Assembly (NCBI GenBank): GCA_009845995.1
Contig: VXYK01000030.1
Coordinates: 17,440 to 81,439 of the forward strand
DNA: 64,000 nucleotides
Direction: 5' to 3'
From: Acidimicrobiaceae bacterium
GTDB taxonomy: Bacteria; Actinomycetota; Acidimicrobiia; Acidimicrobiales; Aldehydirespiratoraceae
The notes under the pieces are model-generated. The model searched no databases. It was given only the letters and a program-made list of their open reading frames with translations, and was not told the DNA's origin. Shown here one piece after another: positions 4,258-54,418 of the stretch. The position numbers and the translations under genes are program-made. How positions within the stretch are numbered: the stretch's first letter is position 1; every line of letters begins with the position of its first letter.

Positions 4258-4985
4258 CCGACGAGACTCCGGAGTACGGCCAGGACGAGATGGCACACGA
4301 TCTACCCCGCGCTGAGATCGTGGATCGAATCGAATGGCTCACCGCTCAGTGTGTCGGCAAGCGCGTGATCCACGTCGGTTTCGCTGACGCAGGTTTTCGT
4401 CTTGAGCAGGGGCGAGCGGGTAGATGGCTACACGGTCATCTTCACGAGGTTGCCGGCGAACTTGTTGGGATCGACGCCGACCCCGTCGGCGTCGCCGCAG
4501 CAACCGACGACGATTTCGAGGCCTATGTGGTGGATTGCACGGACGCAGCAGCCGTTGCCGCGCTCGGGATCGAGCCCGCCGATGTTGTGCTCGCCGGCGA
4601 AGTGATCGAACACGTTTCCGCCCCGGGTCTGTTTCTCGATGCCATGCACCACCTCTGCAAACCAGAGGGCATTCTCATCGTCACCACCCCCAACGCCTAT
4701 GGCCTCATCAACGTGGCTGCATCAATAACTCGACGAGTCGAGATCAACCATCCGGACCATGTGGTTATGTTCACCTGGCGCACCCTGACTGAGCTGATGC
4801 GCAGATCAGGCTGGGACCACACCAGAACGGTGACCTACGTCCCGGCCGTACGCGAGCGCGGCAACCGATCCCGCCTAGAGGCGGCTGCGGTCCGCTCGAT
4901 CGTCGGCGTCGAACGGTTGCTCGGCAAACTCAACCGCCCTTTCTCAGCCGATGGCCTGATCGTCAGCGCCAAGCCGTCTGACTAG
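4254..4985 (+). CDS. Class I SAM-dependent methyltransferase
   Basis: Track ORF 4098..4985. The ATG at 4254 gives an ATGA overlap with the deacetylase stop. Motifs: KRVIHVGFADAGF (motif I-like), VVLAGEVIEHV, GILIVTTPN. Confidence 0.75.
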   Translation: MTDETPEYGQDEMAHDLPRAEIVDRIEWLTAQCVGKRVIHVGFADAGFRLEQGRAGRWLHGHLHEVAGELVGIDADPVGVAAATDDDFEAYVVDCTDAAAVAALGIEPADVVLAGEVIEHVSAPGLFLDAMHHLCKPEGILIVTTPNAYGLINVAASITRRVEINHPDHVVMFTWRTLTELMRRSGWDHTRTVTYVPAVRERGNRSRLEAAAVRSIVGVERLLGKLNRPFSADGLIVSAKPSD

Positions 4986-4992
4986 TTGTTCG

Positions 4993-5352: not shown

Positions 5353-7889
5353 GTACCCAGGTTACTCAACCAATGGATCGCAATCGCTGCGCACACAACG
5401 ACGGCGATCTCAGCAGGAACTCGGAAGCGGGGAATCCCGTAGAACAGCGCGCCGACCAGCGATACATGCACCGCCAGAATCGCGAAGGGCCAGCGGGTGA
5501 GCCGGTCGCGACCCAGGCGCCACCAGCCGATCAGCGCCAGGGGCGCGGCGACCCAGAACCCCACGAAAGCAAGGTTGGAGGCCCAGATCTCACGCCCCTC
5601 CCCGGTGTTGAAGTCAGACATCTGCAACGGCCTGAAAACCGACCACAACCGGCCGAGTCGCGCCGCCATGACTCGCGGCTGGTCGTCGAGGTTGTCGCCG
5701 ATGTAGCTCAGCGCCTCTGCTCGCCAGATCCGCGACTGCTCGCTGGCATCCGCGTCGGCAAGCTCACCAATGCCCGGGGCGAGCGAGTCGGCGTACTCCA
5801 ACGACCAGAAACCGATCGCGCCGCCCGAATACGTCTGTGGCGAGTTGGCACCGATCAAAGTCACGCCGTCGTTGGTCGACATCAGCACCGGTTCGTTGAA
5901 TCGAAGGAGGTTGGGAACCACCCAGGGGGCGATCACCAAAACCGTCAACGCGCCGCTGACAACGACCGCCCTGACCCGTTCGCGCCAGGAAGGATGGCTC
6001 AAAACAACCAACGGTGCCACTAGCAATATCACCAGCAACAAAGACTCGGCTCGGGCAAGCGCCGCGAAACCAATCCACGCACCCAGTTGTATCGCCAGTC
6101 GGCTCGACGGATCCTGCCGATAGCGCAGCGCCGTCCACACCGCTCCCGCGATGCAGAACGCGGTCAGCGATTCGGCCATGACCAGGCCATCGTTGATCCA
6201 CAGGGCCGGATATACCGCCGCGATCGCGGCCGCCGTCAGCCCCACAGCCCGACCCGCAAGCTGGCGAGCAAGCAAGCCGATCATCACGATGACGCCTGCA
6301 CCGACCAGACACATGATGAAACGCTGTTCGAAGATGTGTTCACCCTGCCCACCCGGCAACCACGAAGCGGGCGCGGCAGCAATTGCGGTCAGCGGCGGAT
6401 GGTCCGCTGCGTGGCTGGCTTGAACACCGCTATCGACCAAGCCCGACAATCCGTGCCACGGAGTGACGAAGCCCCTGCCCGCGGCGAGCGCGTCTGCAGC
6501 GAGGGAGTAATAGAACTGGTCACCCGGGAAAATGTCGAGCGTTTGGAGCGTGTGGTCGCGTTTGACCACGATCACGTAGATGACGCGGAACACGAACCCC
6601 GCCGTGGCAACCACAGCCAACTGTGCCCGAAACGACGCAGCTCTCCATCCCGCCGCCAACCGGCTGACGAACAGCTCCGCCGGCGACGGCCCTTGCACAG
6701 GTCTCCGAACCAGCTGCTGCATGCGCAGACCCAAACGTTCAACCAGGTAGTAGCTGGCCACCGAGACCACGAACATCGGTATGAAGGCCACGATGCAGAG
6801 GCGCCAATAGTTGGTCTCGAACAGGCGCACTTCGCCGAAGATGTCGGTCATCGGCCCCCAAGGGTGGACGATGAAAACCATGTGCCACAGGTAGACCGAG
6901 TACGAGATCTTCCCCAGCCAGTCCATCGGTGAACTTGCCACGAACCGCCGCACATAAGAGCGCCGGTCGCTGCCGAACACGAGCGGGAACAGCAACGCGA
7001 ACCCGATCGCCCCGTAGACGAGTTGCCGGCCGATCTCTCGTGGCCACGACGCGACGTCGAGTCCCAACGCCAACCCCATCTGCTGGGACACGATGTGAAA
7101 GAGCAGCGCGGCACCGATCCACCACCAGCCGGCAGGCCCGGCCCACCGTTCCAGCCGATCCCGCGGCGTCGATCCCGGCTCGAAACCGACCCGAGCGATA
7201 GCCAGCGCCATCCCGATGGCGAAGTAGTCCAACATGCCCGGCAGCCAGATGACCGCGTCATTGCTCCATTGGCTCTGCAATCCGAGTACGCAGATCCGAA
7301 AGAAAACCGACAGGAGATAGCAGCCTGCAACAAAGACGAGCAGCGCGTTGCGGCGCTGCGGTCGGTCCCGGTTCTTCAACCAGGGTCTGAGGAATCGGGC
7401 CACGAAGGGCAATGCCAGGTAGAAGGTGACCTCTGTGGCGAGGCTCCAAGCTTGAGGAATCGGGCCCACGACATGTTCGGTCCAGTGAATGTGGATCAAT
7501 AGCGTGGTGGTGATCCCGTCGGCGATGCCCAGGTCTTCGCTGGTGAACACCACGATAAGAGCCAACGCGGCCCAGAACGCCGGGTAGATCCGCATAAATC
7601 TGCGCCACAGGTACTCAACGGTCGGGCGCAGCGGTCGTTCGTCGAGTATCGCCGCGGCTATCGGGGTGAACAGCAGAAATCCTGAGAGAACAAAGAAGAC
7701 CGGCACGCCGATGTCGAGTCGGCCGATGTAGCGGCCGATGGCACCGTCGTAGGTTCGGCCCGAGTGAAACCCGACATGGTGAAAGAAGACCGCGAAAGCC
7801 GCTATGGCTCGCAACCCGTCAAGCCCGACGATCCGACTGCTAGCCGGTGCGGTGTCAATTGAGCTGGTGCTGGTCGGGCTGCCAGACAC
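5307..7889 (-). CDS. Fusion protein: N-terminal acyltransferase-3 (OafA/YrhL-type) domain plus C-terminal GT-C glycosyltransferase domain (paralog 3)
   Basis: Uninterrupted 860-codon frame. GTG start at 7889, directly abutting the TGA of the upstream MBL gene. The N-terminal half has LDGLRAIAAFAVFFHHVGF and about 10 TM segments. The C-terminal half shares GDQFYYS, HPPL, LWINDGL, ALARAE, PWVVPNLLRFNEP and PRFRVPAEI with the two GT-C paralogs. Confidence 0.8.
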   Translation of the reverse strand: MSGSPTSTSSIDTAPASSRIVGLDGLRAIAAFAVFFHHVGFHSGRTYDGAIGRYIGRLDIGVPVFFVLSGFLLFTPIAAAILDERPLRPTVEYLWRRFMRIYPAFWAALALIVVFTSEDLGIADGITTTLLIHIHWTEHVVGPIPQAWSLATEVTFYLALPFVARFLRPWLKNRDRPQRRNALLVFVAGCYLLSVFFRICVLGLQSQWSNDAVIWLPGMLDYFAIGMALAIARVGFEPGSTPRDRLERWAGPAGWWWIGAALLFHIVSQQMGLALGLDVASWPREIGRQLVYGAIGFALLFPLVFGSDRRSYVRRFVASSPMDWLGKISYSVYLWHMVFIVHPWGPMTDIFGEVRLFETNYWRLCIVAFIPMFVVSVASYYLVERLGLRMQQLVRRPVQGPSPAELFVSRLAAGWRAASFRAQLAVVATAGFVFRVIYVIVVKRDHTLQTLDIFPGDQFYYSLAADALAAGRGFVTPWHGLSGLVDSGVQASHAADHPPLTAIAAAPASWLPGGQGEHIFEQRFIMCLVGAGVIVMIGLLARQLAGRAVGLTAAAIAAVYPALWINDGLVMAESLTAFCIAGAVWTALRYRQDPSSRLAIQLGAWIGFAALARAESLLLVILLVAPLVVLSHPSWRERVRAVVVSGALTVLVIAPWVVPNLLRFNEPVLMSTNDGVTLIGANSPQTYSGGAIGFWSLEYADSLAPGIGELADADASEQSRIWRAEALSYIGDNLDDQPRVMAARLGRLWSVFRPLQMSDFNTGEGREIWASNLAFVGFWVAAPLALIGWWRLGRDRLTRWPFAILAVHVSLVGALFYGIPRFRVPAEIAVVVCAAIAIHWLSNLGTCPPRPISSSPPSSS

Positions 7890-51637: not shown

Positions 51638-51664
51638 CTTGGTGACAGACACCCGTTTACCAAG
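51638..51664. promoter_or_regulatory. Inverted repeat CTTGGT-N15-ACCAAG immediately upstream of the antitoxin-like ORF
   Basis: Arms at 51638-51643 and 51659-51664. The ATG at 51666 follows 1 nt later. Only 6 bp, so weak. Confidence 0.3.
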
Positions 51665-51665
51665 T

Positions 51666-51917
51666 ATGCTTTGGCTTGTGAGCAATGTACAGGAATATCT
51701 GGTGTCGTCGTCGGGCCAAGTGTGTCTGCCCGCCAGTGTTCGGCATCGCTGGGACCTGGACGACGGAGGACCGGTCGACGTACTCGATCTCGGATTTGGC
51801 GTGCTCACGGTGCCTAAGGGCGAGGGGCGCCATTTGCTCGCCGACCTCCTTGGACGCGACGAGCACGCCGCTTTCGTCCACAGCTTGGCCGACGATCCAG
51901 ACCTTGCCACGACGTGA
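51666..51917 (+). CDS. AbrB/MazE/SpoVT-type antitoxin-like protein
   Basis: Contains SSSGQVCLPASVRHRWDL, which resembles the SpoVT-AbrB swapped-hairpin motif (G.v.lPa.vR..l.l). The start is uncertain (track 51639). The stop overlaps the next ORF start (GTGA). Confidence 0.55.
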   Translation: MLWLVSNVQEYLVSSSGQVCLPASVRHRWDLDDGGPVDVLDLGFGVLTVPKGEGRHLLADLLGRDEHAAFVHSLADDPDLATT

Positions 51918-52345
51918 ACCAAACGGTCCTCGACGACCATCTCCTGCGCGACCTGCTTTCCGGTGAGTTGAGCGATGGGTTGGCGCAAGTGCTCGTCGAT
52001 CACGAACCAGCCACAACCAATCTCTATCTGGTTCGACTGTGCCGAAGCGTTGTGTCGGCAACCGGAGGGACTCTCACCGGTTCGTGGCCCAGCAGCGCCC
52101 GTCTGGCGTTGGGGCGACAACTCCTCGACCTTCACCCCGACATTGAGGTAGTTCCAGTTCGCAACCTTGCATACCGCATGGCCGAACTTGCCGACGCTCA
52201 TAAACTCTCTACTCTCGGCGCCGAAGCCGTCGCGGCTTCCGAACACCTTTCCGCCCCGCTATGCGTTTGGACCGGAGACGACGGGCCGCGTATTCGGTCT
52301 GCGATGTCGCATCTCGGCTGTGATTACCGCCCAATCCCTCGCTGA
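51914..52345 (+). CDS. PIN-like domain protein (putative VapC-type toxin)
   Basis: The N-terminal VLDDHLL resembles the first acidic PIN block and the C-terminal LCVWTGDDG resembles the last (lvT.D). The middle acidic residues cannot be confidently placed. Confidence 0.42.
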   Translation: MNQTVLDDHLLRDLLSGELSDGLAQVLVDHEPATTNLYLVRLCRSVVSATGGTLTGSWPSSARLALGRQLLDLHPDIEVVPVRNLAYRMAELADAHKLSTLGAEAVAASEHLSAPLCVWTGDDGPRIRSAMSHLGCDYRPIPR

Positions 52346-52359
52346 AATATGGTGAGCAC

Positions 52360-53220
52360 ATGAGGCGACAGGCTGAGTTGACCCATCTAAAAAGCGACGA
52401 GCCCCTCGAAGACGTGCTGGAGGTGCTCGACAGCGACGGGGCGGTGATCGTCGAGGAGTGCTTCAGCACCAAGATGATCGAACTGATCCTCTCCGAGTTG
52501 GCACCCCACATCGAGAAACCGGGCTCCAACAAGACCTACATCAACCCGCTCATTGCCGACTTCTACGGGGAGCACACACGCCATGTGACCGGCTTGTGCT
52601 CCAAGTCGCCCACATTTGTCGACGAGGTGCTGTTGCATCCGCTGATTCTCGGTGTTGCCGATGCCGTGCTGGGGCCGAGTTGCGCTGACTACCAACTGAA
52701 CGTGGCCCACATGCTGGTATTGGGGCCCGGTGCCGAGGTGCAGTTGCCGCATCGTGACGAAGACGTCTGGGTGCACATGCCAAACCCCCATCCCGAGATG
52801 CAGTTGGCGTCGATAACCGCTCTGTGCGACTTCACCCCGGGGATCGGTGCTACCCGGATCGTGCCTGGCAGCCACCACTGGGAACGGGCCCGTCTGGCCG
52901 AGCCTCACGAGTTCGCGGACGCCGTGATGCCCACCGGTTCGAGGGTCATCTACCTGGGTTCGACGATCCACGGTGCCGGATCCAACACCACCACCGATCA
53001 GCACCGGCCGGCGTTCCACCTGAGCTACATGCTGGGCTGGCTGCGCGCCGAGGAGAACAACTGCCTGGCGACGCCCCCCGATATCGCCCGCACCCTGCCC
53101 CGCCGGGCGCAGGAACTTCTCGGCTACGACGTCCACGACGCCATCAAAGACTTCGGAGGATTCCTCGGAGCACTCGACATGAAGATCCCCGCCGACATGC
53201 TCGCCTCCGGCGAACTCTAA
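52360..53220 (+). CDS. Phytanoyl-CoA dioxygenase (PhyH) family Fe(II)/2-oxoglutarate oxygenase
   Basis: The HxD motif is LPHRDEDVW, the distal His is GSTIHGAGSN, and the size is about 286 aa. Confidence 0.8.
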   Translation: MRRQAELTHLKSDEPLEDVLEVLDSDGAVIVEECFSTKMIELILSELAPHIEKPGSNKTYINPLIADFYGEHTRHVTGLCSKSPTFVDEVLLHPLILGVADAVLGPSCADYQLNVAHMLVLGPGAEVQLPHRDEDVWVHMPNPHPEMQLASITALCDFTPGIGATRIVPGSHHWERARLAEPHEFADAVMPTGSRVIYLGSTIHGAGSNTTTDQHRPAFHLSYMLGWLRAEENNCLATPPDIARTLPRRAQELLGYDVHDAIKDFGGFLGALDMKIPADMLASGEL

Positions 53221-53261
53221 GCGTTTAGAGTCGTTTAGAGTAGATTTAGAGTAGATCTAAA
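53214..53261. repeat. Cluster of five TTAGAG-core repeats: inverted copy, three direct TTTAGAGT copies at 10/11-nt spacing, inverted copy
   Basis: Read directly. ACTCTAA is at 53214-53220 and overlaps the PhyH TAA. TTTAGAGT is at 53224-31, 53234-41 and 53245-52. TCTAAA is at 53256-61. ACTCTAA-gcgt-TTAGAGT forms a 7-bp hairpin. Confidence 0.85.
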
Positions 53262-53424
53262 ACACCTGGTAAACCTACAAAACACTAGCTTGTAATTCCT
53301 CTAGTGTCATTAAAAGCGGGCTTTCCAGTAGGCGCGAGGATCCTTTGGAGATTGCCCCACCCATTCGATCAGCCCTTCCTCTTAGATCACTCGAGGGTTA
53401 CAGCACCACCGAGAAAGCCCTGAA

Positions 53425-54108
53425 TTAGCTGTGCACGCTCATCACTTCGTATCCCATACTTTCGAGCTGCTCGATCGCGGCTTTTGGATCGTTGCGCACG
53501 GTCGCACGTGCTTGTCGACGATTCCAATCAGAAAGCGATTCATCGAGCCTTGGACGCCAGCCAGGACTCCAATCCGTGAACAGCTGTTCGCGATGAAGAA
53601 ACTCTAGGAGTTCTTCAACCGTTGGTCTGAAACGTCGACCACCGACGGGAAAGTGGATTTCCTGCAGCCGAGGCAATGGAAGCCCAGCGGTGCCATAAAT
53701 CCACCCGAGTTCTACCGATTCAGCGTGTAGGTGGATATGAGCCGAAGGTTTGTTGGACGCGTCCCGGTCGTATTCGATACGGAACACGGGCCTTGGACTG
53801 CGTTGAACGTCGGGCTGCACCCACAGGCCGAACGTCGATCGTTGAACAGCGAGGTGATCTTGTTGGCGATCAAGCGACACATGAAATTCGACCTTTAGCA
53901 TCAACCTTGGTGGGCCGTTTCCGTCGCACTTACGTAGCAGCGGAATGAAGGCAAACCCCGATTCAAAGGGTGACGGGCCAATCCGACGTTGTTGATTGTC
54001 GCTTGCGTCGACAACAACAAATTCAGGAGCGTCGCGAAGGCATCCTTGAATTAGATCGGTGAGGTTGTCCGCGAATCTGGTCGATTCCGCTTCGAGGCTG
54101 TCGATCAC
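53425..54108 (-). CDS. Hypothetical protein, 227 aa, no recognisable family (islet gene 2)
   Basis: Track ORF 53425..54159. The GTG at 54108 gives a GTGA overlap with the stop of the upstream 63-aa ORF. Lower G+C than the flanks (32/60 in two hand-counted samples). Confidence 0.55.
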   Translation of the reverse strand: MIDSLEAESTRFADNLTDLIQGCLRDAPEFVVVDASDNQQRRIGPSPFESGFAFIPLLRKCDGNGPPRLMLKVEFHVSLDRQQDHLAVQRSTFGLWVQPDVQRSPRPVFRIEYDRDASNKPSAHIHLHAESVELGWIYGTAGLPLPRLQEIHFPVGGRRFRPTVEELLEFLHREQLFTDWSPGWRPRLDESLSDWNRRQARATVRNDPKAAIEQLESMGYEVMSVHS

Positions 54109-54296
54109 GCGACAGCCGGGAGGTCGCTTTCGGTCAACACGTCGCCCCAGATAAGCCACAAATCCCTTAGGAGTGGGTTGTCGAGGCGATCCTCTTTGCC
54201 GAGTTCGTAAAAAGCGCGCAAACCCAGTCCGGTTGAGTTGGCATTCCTCTCCAACATCTCAACAATCTCTTCGCGGGGAACAGTCAAGCTGGTCAT
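54105..54296 (-). CDS. Hypothetical small protein, 63 aa (islet gene 1)
   Basis: The ATG at 54296 is preceded by SD-like GGGAGAG (minus strand gaaaGGGAGAGacaATG). It is translationally coupled to the 227-aa ORF. No family recognised. Confidence 0.5.
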   Translation of the reverse strand: MTSLTVPREEIVEMLERNANSTGLGLRAFYELGKEDRLDNPLLRDLWLIWGDVLTESDLPAVA

Positions 54297-54418
54297 TGTC
54301 TCTCCCTTTCGTCTCGGCTCAAGAGGTAGCCACTCTCCTGTTCTTCACAGTATATGAGACGGTGTGACACTAACTGAGGCCAGACAAGCGCGTCCATCGC
54401 TATTCCCGGGTTTCGGGG

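Follow-up and report, generated by a model that had tools for sequence, protein, structure and literature searches.

Actinobacterial type II toxin–antitoxin (TA) systems with enzyme toxins, such as MenA/MenT, the Res-Xre system MbcA/MbcT and VapBC, place a small upstream gene in translational contact with a larger downstream gene. Most type II antitoxins carry a DNA-binding domain, and many TA toxins are basic. In type II systems the toxin stops growth, and the antitoxin, the more labile of the two, neutralises it through direct binding. Antitoxin mimics are encoded by phages as well: T4 Dmd acts against RnlA/LsoA, and phage pseudo-ToxI acts against ToxN. In mycobacteriophages, genes for TA, defence and toxin immunity that are expressed in lysogeny are commonly found at att-proximal positions (Dedrick et al., PMC8092301). 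These include polymorphic toxin–immunity (PT-Imm) cassettes of the WXG-100/type VII secretion system (T7SS) kind, in which a WXG-100 N-terminal domain is carried by a large toxin with a variable C-terminus and the immunity gene lies downstream (PMC8092301). Here we analysed a 64-kb stretch of contig VXYK01000030.1 from an Acidimicrobiaceae bacterium (hereafter the window, with all positions given on its forward strand), and focus on an islet at 53221-54418 that holds a small and a large gene. This islet is an accessory module that a sponge-associated member of Acidimicrobiia acquired horizontally, and it stands outside the oxygenase gene cluster that surrounds it. We propose, with a rough probability of 0.55 judged from comparisons of sequences, that it is one copy of a mobile, translationally coupled TA-like or abortive-infection (Abi) module, both protein families of which are undescribed.

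The likeness to the type II systems named above begins with the small upstream gene coupled to a larger downstream one and extends to an obligate, co-diverging pair that is multi-copy, patchily distributed, foreign in composition and carried by plasmids and prophages, with preferential decay of the putative toxin. The differences lie in the proteins. Neither by sequence nor by fold is there a match to a toxin superfamily (PIN, RelE/ParE, MazF, Fic/Doc, GNAT, RES, NTase, HipA or Zeta), the small protein lacks an RHH, HTH, AbrB or Phd-type domain, and the large protein, at 227 amino acids (aa), is about twice the size of a classical toxin and is not basic. In two prophages of Mycobacterium abscessus of the MabE1 group the pair lies near the integrase in an interchangeable cargo slot, much like the att-proximal cassettes of mycobacterial prophages (PMC8092301), a study that makes no mention of this small and large pair. 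It differs from the WXG-100/T7SS cassettes of the same study in its short stand-alone proteins, its small-then-large order and the lack of a WXG100 Pfam match. As with Dmd and pseudo-ToxI, some phages encode a stand-alone homologue of the small protein, with no large partner; by analogy, these copies might neutralise the large protein. A 60-90-aa acidic helical protein that blocks an enzyme by tight binding would also recall, in our model, the immunity proteins of nuclease colicins and of contact-dependent inhibition (CDI) systems. There, however, the immunity gene lies downstream and the toxin is exported, whereas here the small gene is upstream, with no hint of secretion and no fold match. 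The architecture is that of a familiar TA/Abi system, built from two undescribed protein families.

A coupled pair that diverges as a unit

Both genes lie on the minus strand. The small gene (54105..54296) has an ATG start and encodes 63 aa, the proposed inhibitor or antitoxin partner; the large gene (53425..54108) has a GTG start and encodes the 227-aa proposed effector or toxin. At the GTGA junction (54105-54108, minus strand) the large-gene GTG overlaps the TGA stop of the small gene, an arrangement of translational coupling, and GGGAGAG, a putative Shine-Dalgarno-like element (54300-54306, minus strand), stands 3 nt before the small-gene ATG. Both open reading frames (ORFs), their overlap and this element had been noticed in a first-pass annotation made from the letters of the DNA, and all were recovered at the same positions; on identical public contigs, independent gene calls return the same pair of 63 and 227 aa. 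A 244-aa version of the large gene, starting at a GTG at 54159, was rejected because the N-termini of homologues fit the 227-aa form, aligning from its residue 1-3, and because an NTGA junction is found in 35 of 72 related pairs. Chance ORFs are excluded because both proteins have relatives. The large protein has 110 homologues (E down to 1e-110) in a collection of 5.8 billion proteins, nearly all of 220-245 aa; none of them has an informative name or carries a Pfam domain. Close homologues of the small protein number 52 (62-69 aa), and a family profile raises the count to 116, all stand-alone and all labelled 'hypothetical protein'.

The sharp break in composition proposed at first reading was borne out by a sliding-window analysis. 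The GC content of the islet is 0.533, compared with a mean of 0.616 over the 64 kb (standard deviation 0.0185 for segments of the same size); this corresponds to z = -4.5 and is the lowest value among 1257 sliding windows of 1.2 kb. GC at third codon positions is lowered too, at 0.54 in the large gene and 0.67 in the small gene, as compared with 0.82, 0.72 and 0.76 in the PhyH, SnoaL and P450 genes of the surroundings. The 60-nt hand counts that had first indicated the break gave its direction correctly and exaggerated its extremes: the whole 3' spacer has a GC content of 0.466 rather than 0.33, and the whole PhyH gene 0.63 rather than 0.72.

For the pairing census, hidden Markov models (HMMs) were built for both families and applied to the collected loci. 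Wherever a large gene lies away from a contig edge, a small gene is found directly upstream on the same strand, and this small gene is intact for 70 of the 71 intact large genes. The suggestion that homologues might never be syntenic with the small ORF, named at the outset as an outcome that would refute the reading, therefore fails decisively. The 4-nt NTGA overlap mentioned above belongs to a broader pattern: the genes overlap by 1-8 nt in 41 of the 72 related pairs, and almost all of the rest lie within about 30 nt of each other. Pairwise identities of the small and large proteins are correlated (r = 0.884 over 74 pairs; Mantel 0/999), with the small protein slightly better conserved among close relatives (0.82 versus 0.75 in the 70-80% identity bin). 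The small and large genes are thus inherited, and diverge, as a unit. Two loci vary the arrangement on the small side: in one (L047, 7417-7833), a single ORF of 139 codons ahead of the large gene holds two tandem small-protein domains, and in another (L040), two separate small-gene copies stand upstream of a single large gene.

Decay of the pair is asymmetric. The large gene is frameshifted or truncated beside an intact small gene at six loci (L018, L020, L042, L045, L048 and L079), and the reverse, a broken small gene beside an intact large gene, occurs at one locus only (L032). In the latter (4940-4990), a nearly invariant Trp codon reads TGA, giving LRDH*LIYGD where the family has LRDLWLIWGD, with the large gene intact; the TGA could be a sequencing error or be read through, or the large gene could have been inactivated by substitutions.

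Patchy distribution and mobile contexts

The locus survey used a single peptide pattern on one genome per species, about 185,000 species genomes in all, and returned 136 loci. The best 80 of these 136 are essentially all from Actinomycetota; two non-actinobacterial labels belong to short contigs of metagenome-assembled genomes (MAGs) and are probably binning errors. Within this best 80, many loci come from sponge- or marine-associated Acidimicrobiia MAGs (Ca. Poriferisocius, Aldehydirespirator and Spongiisocius), among which are the closest relatives of the pair in the window, and the cultured hosts are Mycobacterium, Frankia, Pseudofrankia, Blastococcus, Nocardia, Corynebacterium and Cryptosporangium. 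Several genomes hold 2-4 copies of the pair. MAG IRC4_bin_37 contains three complete pairs in tandem (L022, 7825-11945) as well as a fourth, divergent copy (L058), and at another locus (L029) two pairs lie 3.5 kb apart. A lowered GC content is again common: at 56 of 67 loci the large gene lies below its flanks, with a mean difference of 4.3 points and a maximum of 19.

The genes around the pair change from locus to locus. One homologous locus stands beside a cluster of HATPase_c_3, DNA methylase and type IIG restriction-modification (R-M) genes, one beside Fic and one (L003) beside an rve integrase, and several lie among metabolic genes, as in the window. When the two ORFs closest to the pair on either side were tallied (267 ORFs; raw counts, with no background frequency), the recurrent neighbours were DUF222 with HNH (6), Schlafen AlbA_2 with HATPase_c_4 (5), DNA methylases (4), Fic (3), UvrD-type helicases (3), phage integrase (2) and nSTAND3 (2). 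Almost all other neighbours were singletons, apart from pairs of AAA ATPases, sigma-70 factors and glycosyltransferases and four DUF520 genes of one syntenic lineage. That lineage, within Acidimicrobiia, carries a divergent copy of the pair in the same position beside the DUF520 gene (L059, L068, L071 and L076, the last at 7188-7676); over short evolutionary spans, some copies are thus passed on vertically and stay in place. On plasmids, the pair is next to cas3 and a type I-E CRISPR locus in a linear plasmid of Streptomyces albus, adjoins two integrases and a transposase in pDK3 of Rhodococcus DK17, and also occurs in Curtobacterium. In Mycolicibacterium iranicum it abuts phage capsid genes. 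The pair is a horizontally mobile accessory module, and the check for variable islands proposed together with the original prediction came out in its favour: contexts differ, and they include plasmids, prophage cargo slots and R-M, CRISPR, Fic and Schlafen-type neighbours.

One locus could suggest a quite different role. On an Acidimicrobiia chromosome the pair lies between rplQ and truA (L089, 6816-7690), inside the rpsM-rpsK-rpsD-rpoA-rplQ / truA-rplM-rpsI cluster of ribosomal protein and rpoA genes, as might be expected of a housekeeping pair with a core function, for example one associated with the ribosome or with translation. This explanation is close to refuted by the patchiness of the pair (136 loci in the species genomes searched, by one peptide pattern), its variable copy number, pseudogenes, foreign GC content and carriage on plasmids and prophages, and the contexts of all other loci differ from this one. 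Genes for Fic and Hypoth_Ymh proteins are found a few kb beyond the pair at the same locus.

The MabE1 prophages of M. abscessus give the clearest view of the pair as cargo. In prophi102-2 (L085) and prophiGD54-1, it corresponds to gp78/gp77, both labelled hypothetical in GenBank, and is located between the tyrosine integrase and the holin/lysin cassette, transcribed in the direction of int. The sister prophage prophiGD04-1 (L087) has the same integrase and lysis cassette with other cargo in the interval, namely genes labelled 'RNA demethylase' and 'oxidoreductase' and one for a hypothetical protein. The integrase-to-lysis interval of MabE1 is thus a swappable cargo slot. The small protein of these prophages is found in 164 blocks of the assembly collection.

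Such positions also bear on the idea that the pair serves the elements themselves, as a pair that excludes superinfecting phages or has a regulatory role (modulating, for example, integration, excision or lysogeny), that lacks toxin activity and persists in chromosomes as remnants. Integrases adjacent to the pair in the MabE1 prophages, the Rhodococcus plasmid and L003, the phage capsid genes beside it in M. iranicum, and the recurrence of integrase and HNH-DUF222 as neighbours would all suit this idea. We nevertheless regard it as improbable: within several kb of most loci there is no gene for an integrase, a tRNA or another part of an element (in the window, the sole tRNA is at 25.9 kb, 27 kb from the pair), neither protein has a DNA-binding signature, and the sister MabE1 prophage does without the pair.

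Homologues of the small gene also occur as orphans in phages. Full-length homologues of the Mycobacterium type of small protein (43-45% identity) are encoded by Pacc40 (gp94), Yoshi, Galactic, BlueCrab, LunaBlu, Demsculpinboyz and Smeagol (gp5). In six-frame HMM scans of whole genomes, the small gene was detected in Pacc40 and Smeagol at E ~1e-20, and the large gene was not found in either, even with filters off (best E ~3). Two different large proteins, used as tblastn queries against phages, matched the M. abscessus prophages only and none of the seven orphan carriers. The orphans found represent one small-protein subtype, and all are from M. smegmatis phages; orphan small genes of the prophage gp78 type and of the Streptomyces type were not found in the phage collection. 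Small-gene orphans would be expected were phages to turn copies of the inhibitor on the effector, although this is a hint and not a test.

The same orphans could be read with the opposite polarity, in which the small protein would be the active factor that inhibits growth or takes over the host, and the large protein would neutralise it or give immunity to it. Among phages, small early proteins frequently inhibit the host, as in mycobacteriophage cytotoxicity screens; the Pacc40 orphan belongs to a group of small genes in the right arm (gp91-97) that have no known function and lie at a distance from the structural genes; and the small protein is the better conserved of the two among close relatives, as noted above. 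We consider this reversal very unlikely. The six loci with an intact small gene and a broken large gene should be lethal were the small protein toxic, the opposite decay is limited to L032, and both the small-upstream order and the acidity of the small protein suit an antitoxin or inhibitor. It is the asymmetric decay (six loci versus one), taken with this acidity, that gives a hint that the large protein would be the toxic partner.

Two protein families and a proposed mechanism

As had been proposed at first reading, neither protein falls into a recognisable family: Pfam, NCBIfam, PADLOC and PHROGs gave no match for either protein of the window. Searched together with distant members from Mycobacterium, Frankia, the Streptomyces plasmid and the prophage, these databases returned noise, apart from phrog_26794 (unknown function), the one real PHROGs match, for the Mycobacterium small protein. 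Pfam searches of 131 diverse members of the large family, one by one, likewise gave noise and no consistent match, and phmmer and two profile searches of PDB sequences returned nothing meaningful. The large family is nevertheless sizeable, its profile collecting 1074 clusters (at 50% identity) at E <= 1e-3, nearly all of them from Actinomycetota, and 820 at E <= 1e-10. One member (P0176, 406 aa) has a 180-aa C-terminal extension without a Pfam match, which represents either a fusion or read-through into a neighbouring gene.

Conservation in the large family centres on a few polar residues. Among the 131 sequences, P154, G156, R161, E165 and Q199 are invariant, and S91, R115, H124, H152, G157, R159, P162, D166, E174 and R205 are at least 90% conserved. 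The family signature consists of LH-F-P-x-GGRRFRP-x-L-E-[DE], EYDR and an AH motif; in the window these read LH152-F-P-x-GGRRFRP-x-x-EE (152-166), EYDR (112-115) and AH124-x-H-x-H. Because the conserved Arg, His, Glu and Ser residues cluster at a Gly-rich loop followed by a helix, the pattern suggests that the large protein is an enzyme whose substrate is phosphorylated, either a nucleotide or a nucleic acid. Several known active sites were considered and set aside. The window protein reads H124-I-H126-L-H128-A-E in the manner of a HIT triad (H-x-H-x-H-x-x, in which the nucleophilic middle His is conserved), yet only H124 is conserved (distant members have Q, N, C, P or A in place of H126 and H128) and there is no Pfam HIT match; of a cupin HxH...E arrangement, only the first His is conserved; the candidate residues for an R-S-E ADP-ribosyltransferase or RES site fall in predicted helices, where those folds need strands; the spacing does not suit a HEPN Rx4-6H motif; and a WXG motif is absent.

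The AlphaFold2 (AF2) model of the large protein is of high confidence (predicted local distance difference test (pLDDT) 93.7; predicted template modelling (TM) score 0.89) and begins with a helix (2-23), followed by a mostly meander sheet of six strands and by four helices. Foldseek found no match to this model with E < 1e-3 in PDB or BFVD (TM <= 0.29), and the predicted fold is therefore new relative to these two collections. The order of its elements, an N-terminal helix, an antiparallel meander sheet and C-terminal helices, is also that of the Mam33/p32/C1QBP and SecB folds. Several of these proteins are among the weak Foldseek hits, with scores that amount to no real match (E 0.075-0.46, TM 0.09-0.18, root-mean-square deviation >15 Å), and they offer no counterpart of the signature motifs. 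The values for the Mam33/p32-like structures 3qv0 and 3rpx (E = 0.11-0.24, TM 0.16-0.21) are not significant, and the matches to Mam33/p32, SecB and the CaMKII hub are all at noise level.

The small protein diverges fast and retains a simple pattern: a helix, G-x-(S/T)-x-x-E-L, a second helix and then a helix with a nearly invariant Trp. It is strongly acidic, with an isoelectric point (pI) of 4.3 and a net charge of -6.5 (family median pI 4.46). The AF2 model (pLDDT 85.4) places helices at 8-21, 25-34 and 41-53, and Foldseek found no PDB match to it with E < 1e-3. Domain searches revealed no DNA-binding domain of the RHH, HTH, AbrB or Phd/YefM kind.

From these features we infer how a TA-like or Abi module of this kind might work, that is, which partner is toxic, how the two bind, what triggers them and by what chemistry. 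The small and large proteins would be made from one transcript, with termination and reinitiation at GTGA setting their ratio. The 227-aa protein would be the effector, with S91, R115, H124, H152, R159, R161 and E165, all invariant or nearly so, arranged around the Gly-rich loop LHFPxGGRRFRPxxEE. The acidic three-helix protein of 63 aa, made first, would bind the effector as a stoichiometric inhibitor. When the small protein is lost, titrated or degraded, as on loss of the element or infection by a phage, the effector would be freed and would arrest growth, which in turn would stabilise the element or abort the infection. The orphan small genes of mycobacteriophages could then be decoy antitoxins serving in counter-defence.

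Pairing, foreign composition and variable or mobile contexts together make up a comparative-genomic signature of TA or defence modules. The initial assignment to a TA or defence-type module is supported in part, by a conserved pair, foreign composition and variable contexts; on the other side, we found no match to a toxin, antitoxin or defence family and no DNA-binding domain in the putative antitoxin. Several observations weigh against a module of this type. PADLOC, Pfam, NCBIfam and PHROGs mark neither protein as a toxin, antitoxin or defence component, and neither protein of the window matches a defence model in PADLOC-DB v2. The classic type II design, with an antitoxin that regulates its own operon, is not apparent in a small protein that is strongly acidic and has no recognisable DNA-binding fold; the large protein, with a pI of 5.8 (family median 6.3), is itself mildly acidic, where many TA toxins are basic. 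A large share of the loci lie among metabolic or housekeeping genes, and the defence-island signal is modest, at 2-6 of 267 ORFs for each type of neighbour in a census that has no background frequency. The toxicity, neutralisation and phage protection ascribed to the pair are predictions from its sequence and genomic setting, the enzyme reading is drawn from the conservation of residues, and the phage orphans could have an unrelated role.

The most substantial alternative is one that we think unlikely: the pair could be a non-toxic accessory function, in which an enzyme (for example, one with a nucleic-acid or small-molecule modifying activity) works with a small regulatory, chaperone or specificity subunit and travels as cargo of mobile elements, giving a benefit without addiction or abortive infection. 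Obligate pairing and co-divergence would suit any two-subunit complex, many loci are amid metabolic genes, as in the window (PhyH, SnoaL, Rieske and P450), and the large protein is neither similar to toxins nor basic. A metabolic enzyme would, however, not usually show multi-copy and tandem arrays, frequent decay of the large gene only or orphan small genes in phages; moreover, no third gene or pathway is conserved with the pair, and its neighbours differ nearly everywhere.

We therefore retain the TA-like or Abi module as the preferred reading. A bolder version of it, which we advance only tentatively and hold to be doubtful, is a new Actinomycetota-wide anti-phage Abi/TA system with an effector of a fold and catalytic centre absent from PDB, an acidic three-helix inhibitor and carriage by M. 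abscessus prophages, countered by inhibitor copies in phages. If the module reading is correct, the pair would be a sizeable two-gene addition to the TA and defence repertoire of Actinomycetota (>1000 clusters at 50% identity), from a family without a Pfam model, a PDB relative or an entry in a defence database. It would also be tractable, as clinical isolates of M. abscessus commonly harbour a prophage with one version in its cargo slot; the orphan small gene is present in some sequenced M. smegmatis phages and not in others, which would then bear on the host range of mycobacterial phages.

Surroundings of the pair in the window

In the window, the pair is flanked by a convergent PhyH gene and, upstream, by a co-directional SnoaL gene, in an oxygenase/hydantoinase cluster that includes Rieske and P450 genes. 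The upstream spacer between the SnoaL stop codon and the small gene (54297..54418, minus strand) has 122 nt and a GC content of 0.549. A scan for the sigma-70 consensus found no minus-strand promoter in this spacer, and the consensus scan for promoters and terminators found nothing on the gene strand of the pair; the promoter of the pair is therefore putative, with TATACT (54349-54354, minus strand), a hexamer of the TANNNT type, as a candidate -10-like element.

On the other side, the large gene and PhyH converge on an AT-rich 3' spacer (53221..53424; GC 0.466) that contains terminator-like elements made of a hairpin and a U-run and folds in an ordinary manner (z = -1.05). Directly after the PhyH stop codon lies a mini tandem repeat (53222-53255), in which CGTTTAGAGT occurs twice and is followed by two copies of AGATTTAGAGT; its first unit pairs with the end of PhyH as a 10-nt inverted repeat (53214-53223 / 53232-53241). 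Rfam gave no match in the 51-56 kb region.

The left edge of the islet coincides with the end of DNA similarity to other PhyH-bearing contigs. Similarity to four such metagenome contigs (L101, L102, L096 and L098) ends at 53218-53222, at the PhyH stop codon, and beyond this point the genes of the relatives differ, with a MOSC-like gene followed by an ATPase gene among those of L102. What lies to the right of PhyH thus varies within this lineage. In the empty-site test, which used metagenome relatives of the adjacent PhyH, gene order was not conserved and no clean empty site was found.

A second overlapping gene pair lies close by on the plus strand (51639-52345) and had been noted as TA-like in the first-pass annotation. 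The overlap is present, between genes for 92 aa (83 aa with the start chosen by gene callers) and 143 aa. The TA identity fared less well, as the 92-aa protein has only sub-threshold AbrB/MazE matches (Pfam E = 0.002; TIGR01439 E = 7e-4) and the 143-aa partner has no match in Pfam, NCBIfam, PADLOC or PDB. By eye, the N-terminal 'TVLDD' and C-terminal 'TGDD' of the 143-aa protein have a PIN-like look, and the pair would then be VapBC-like.

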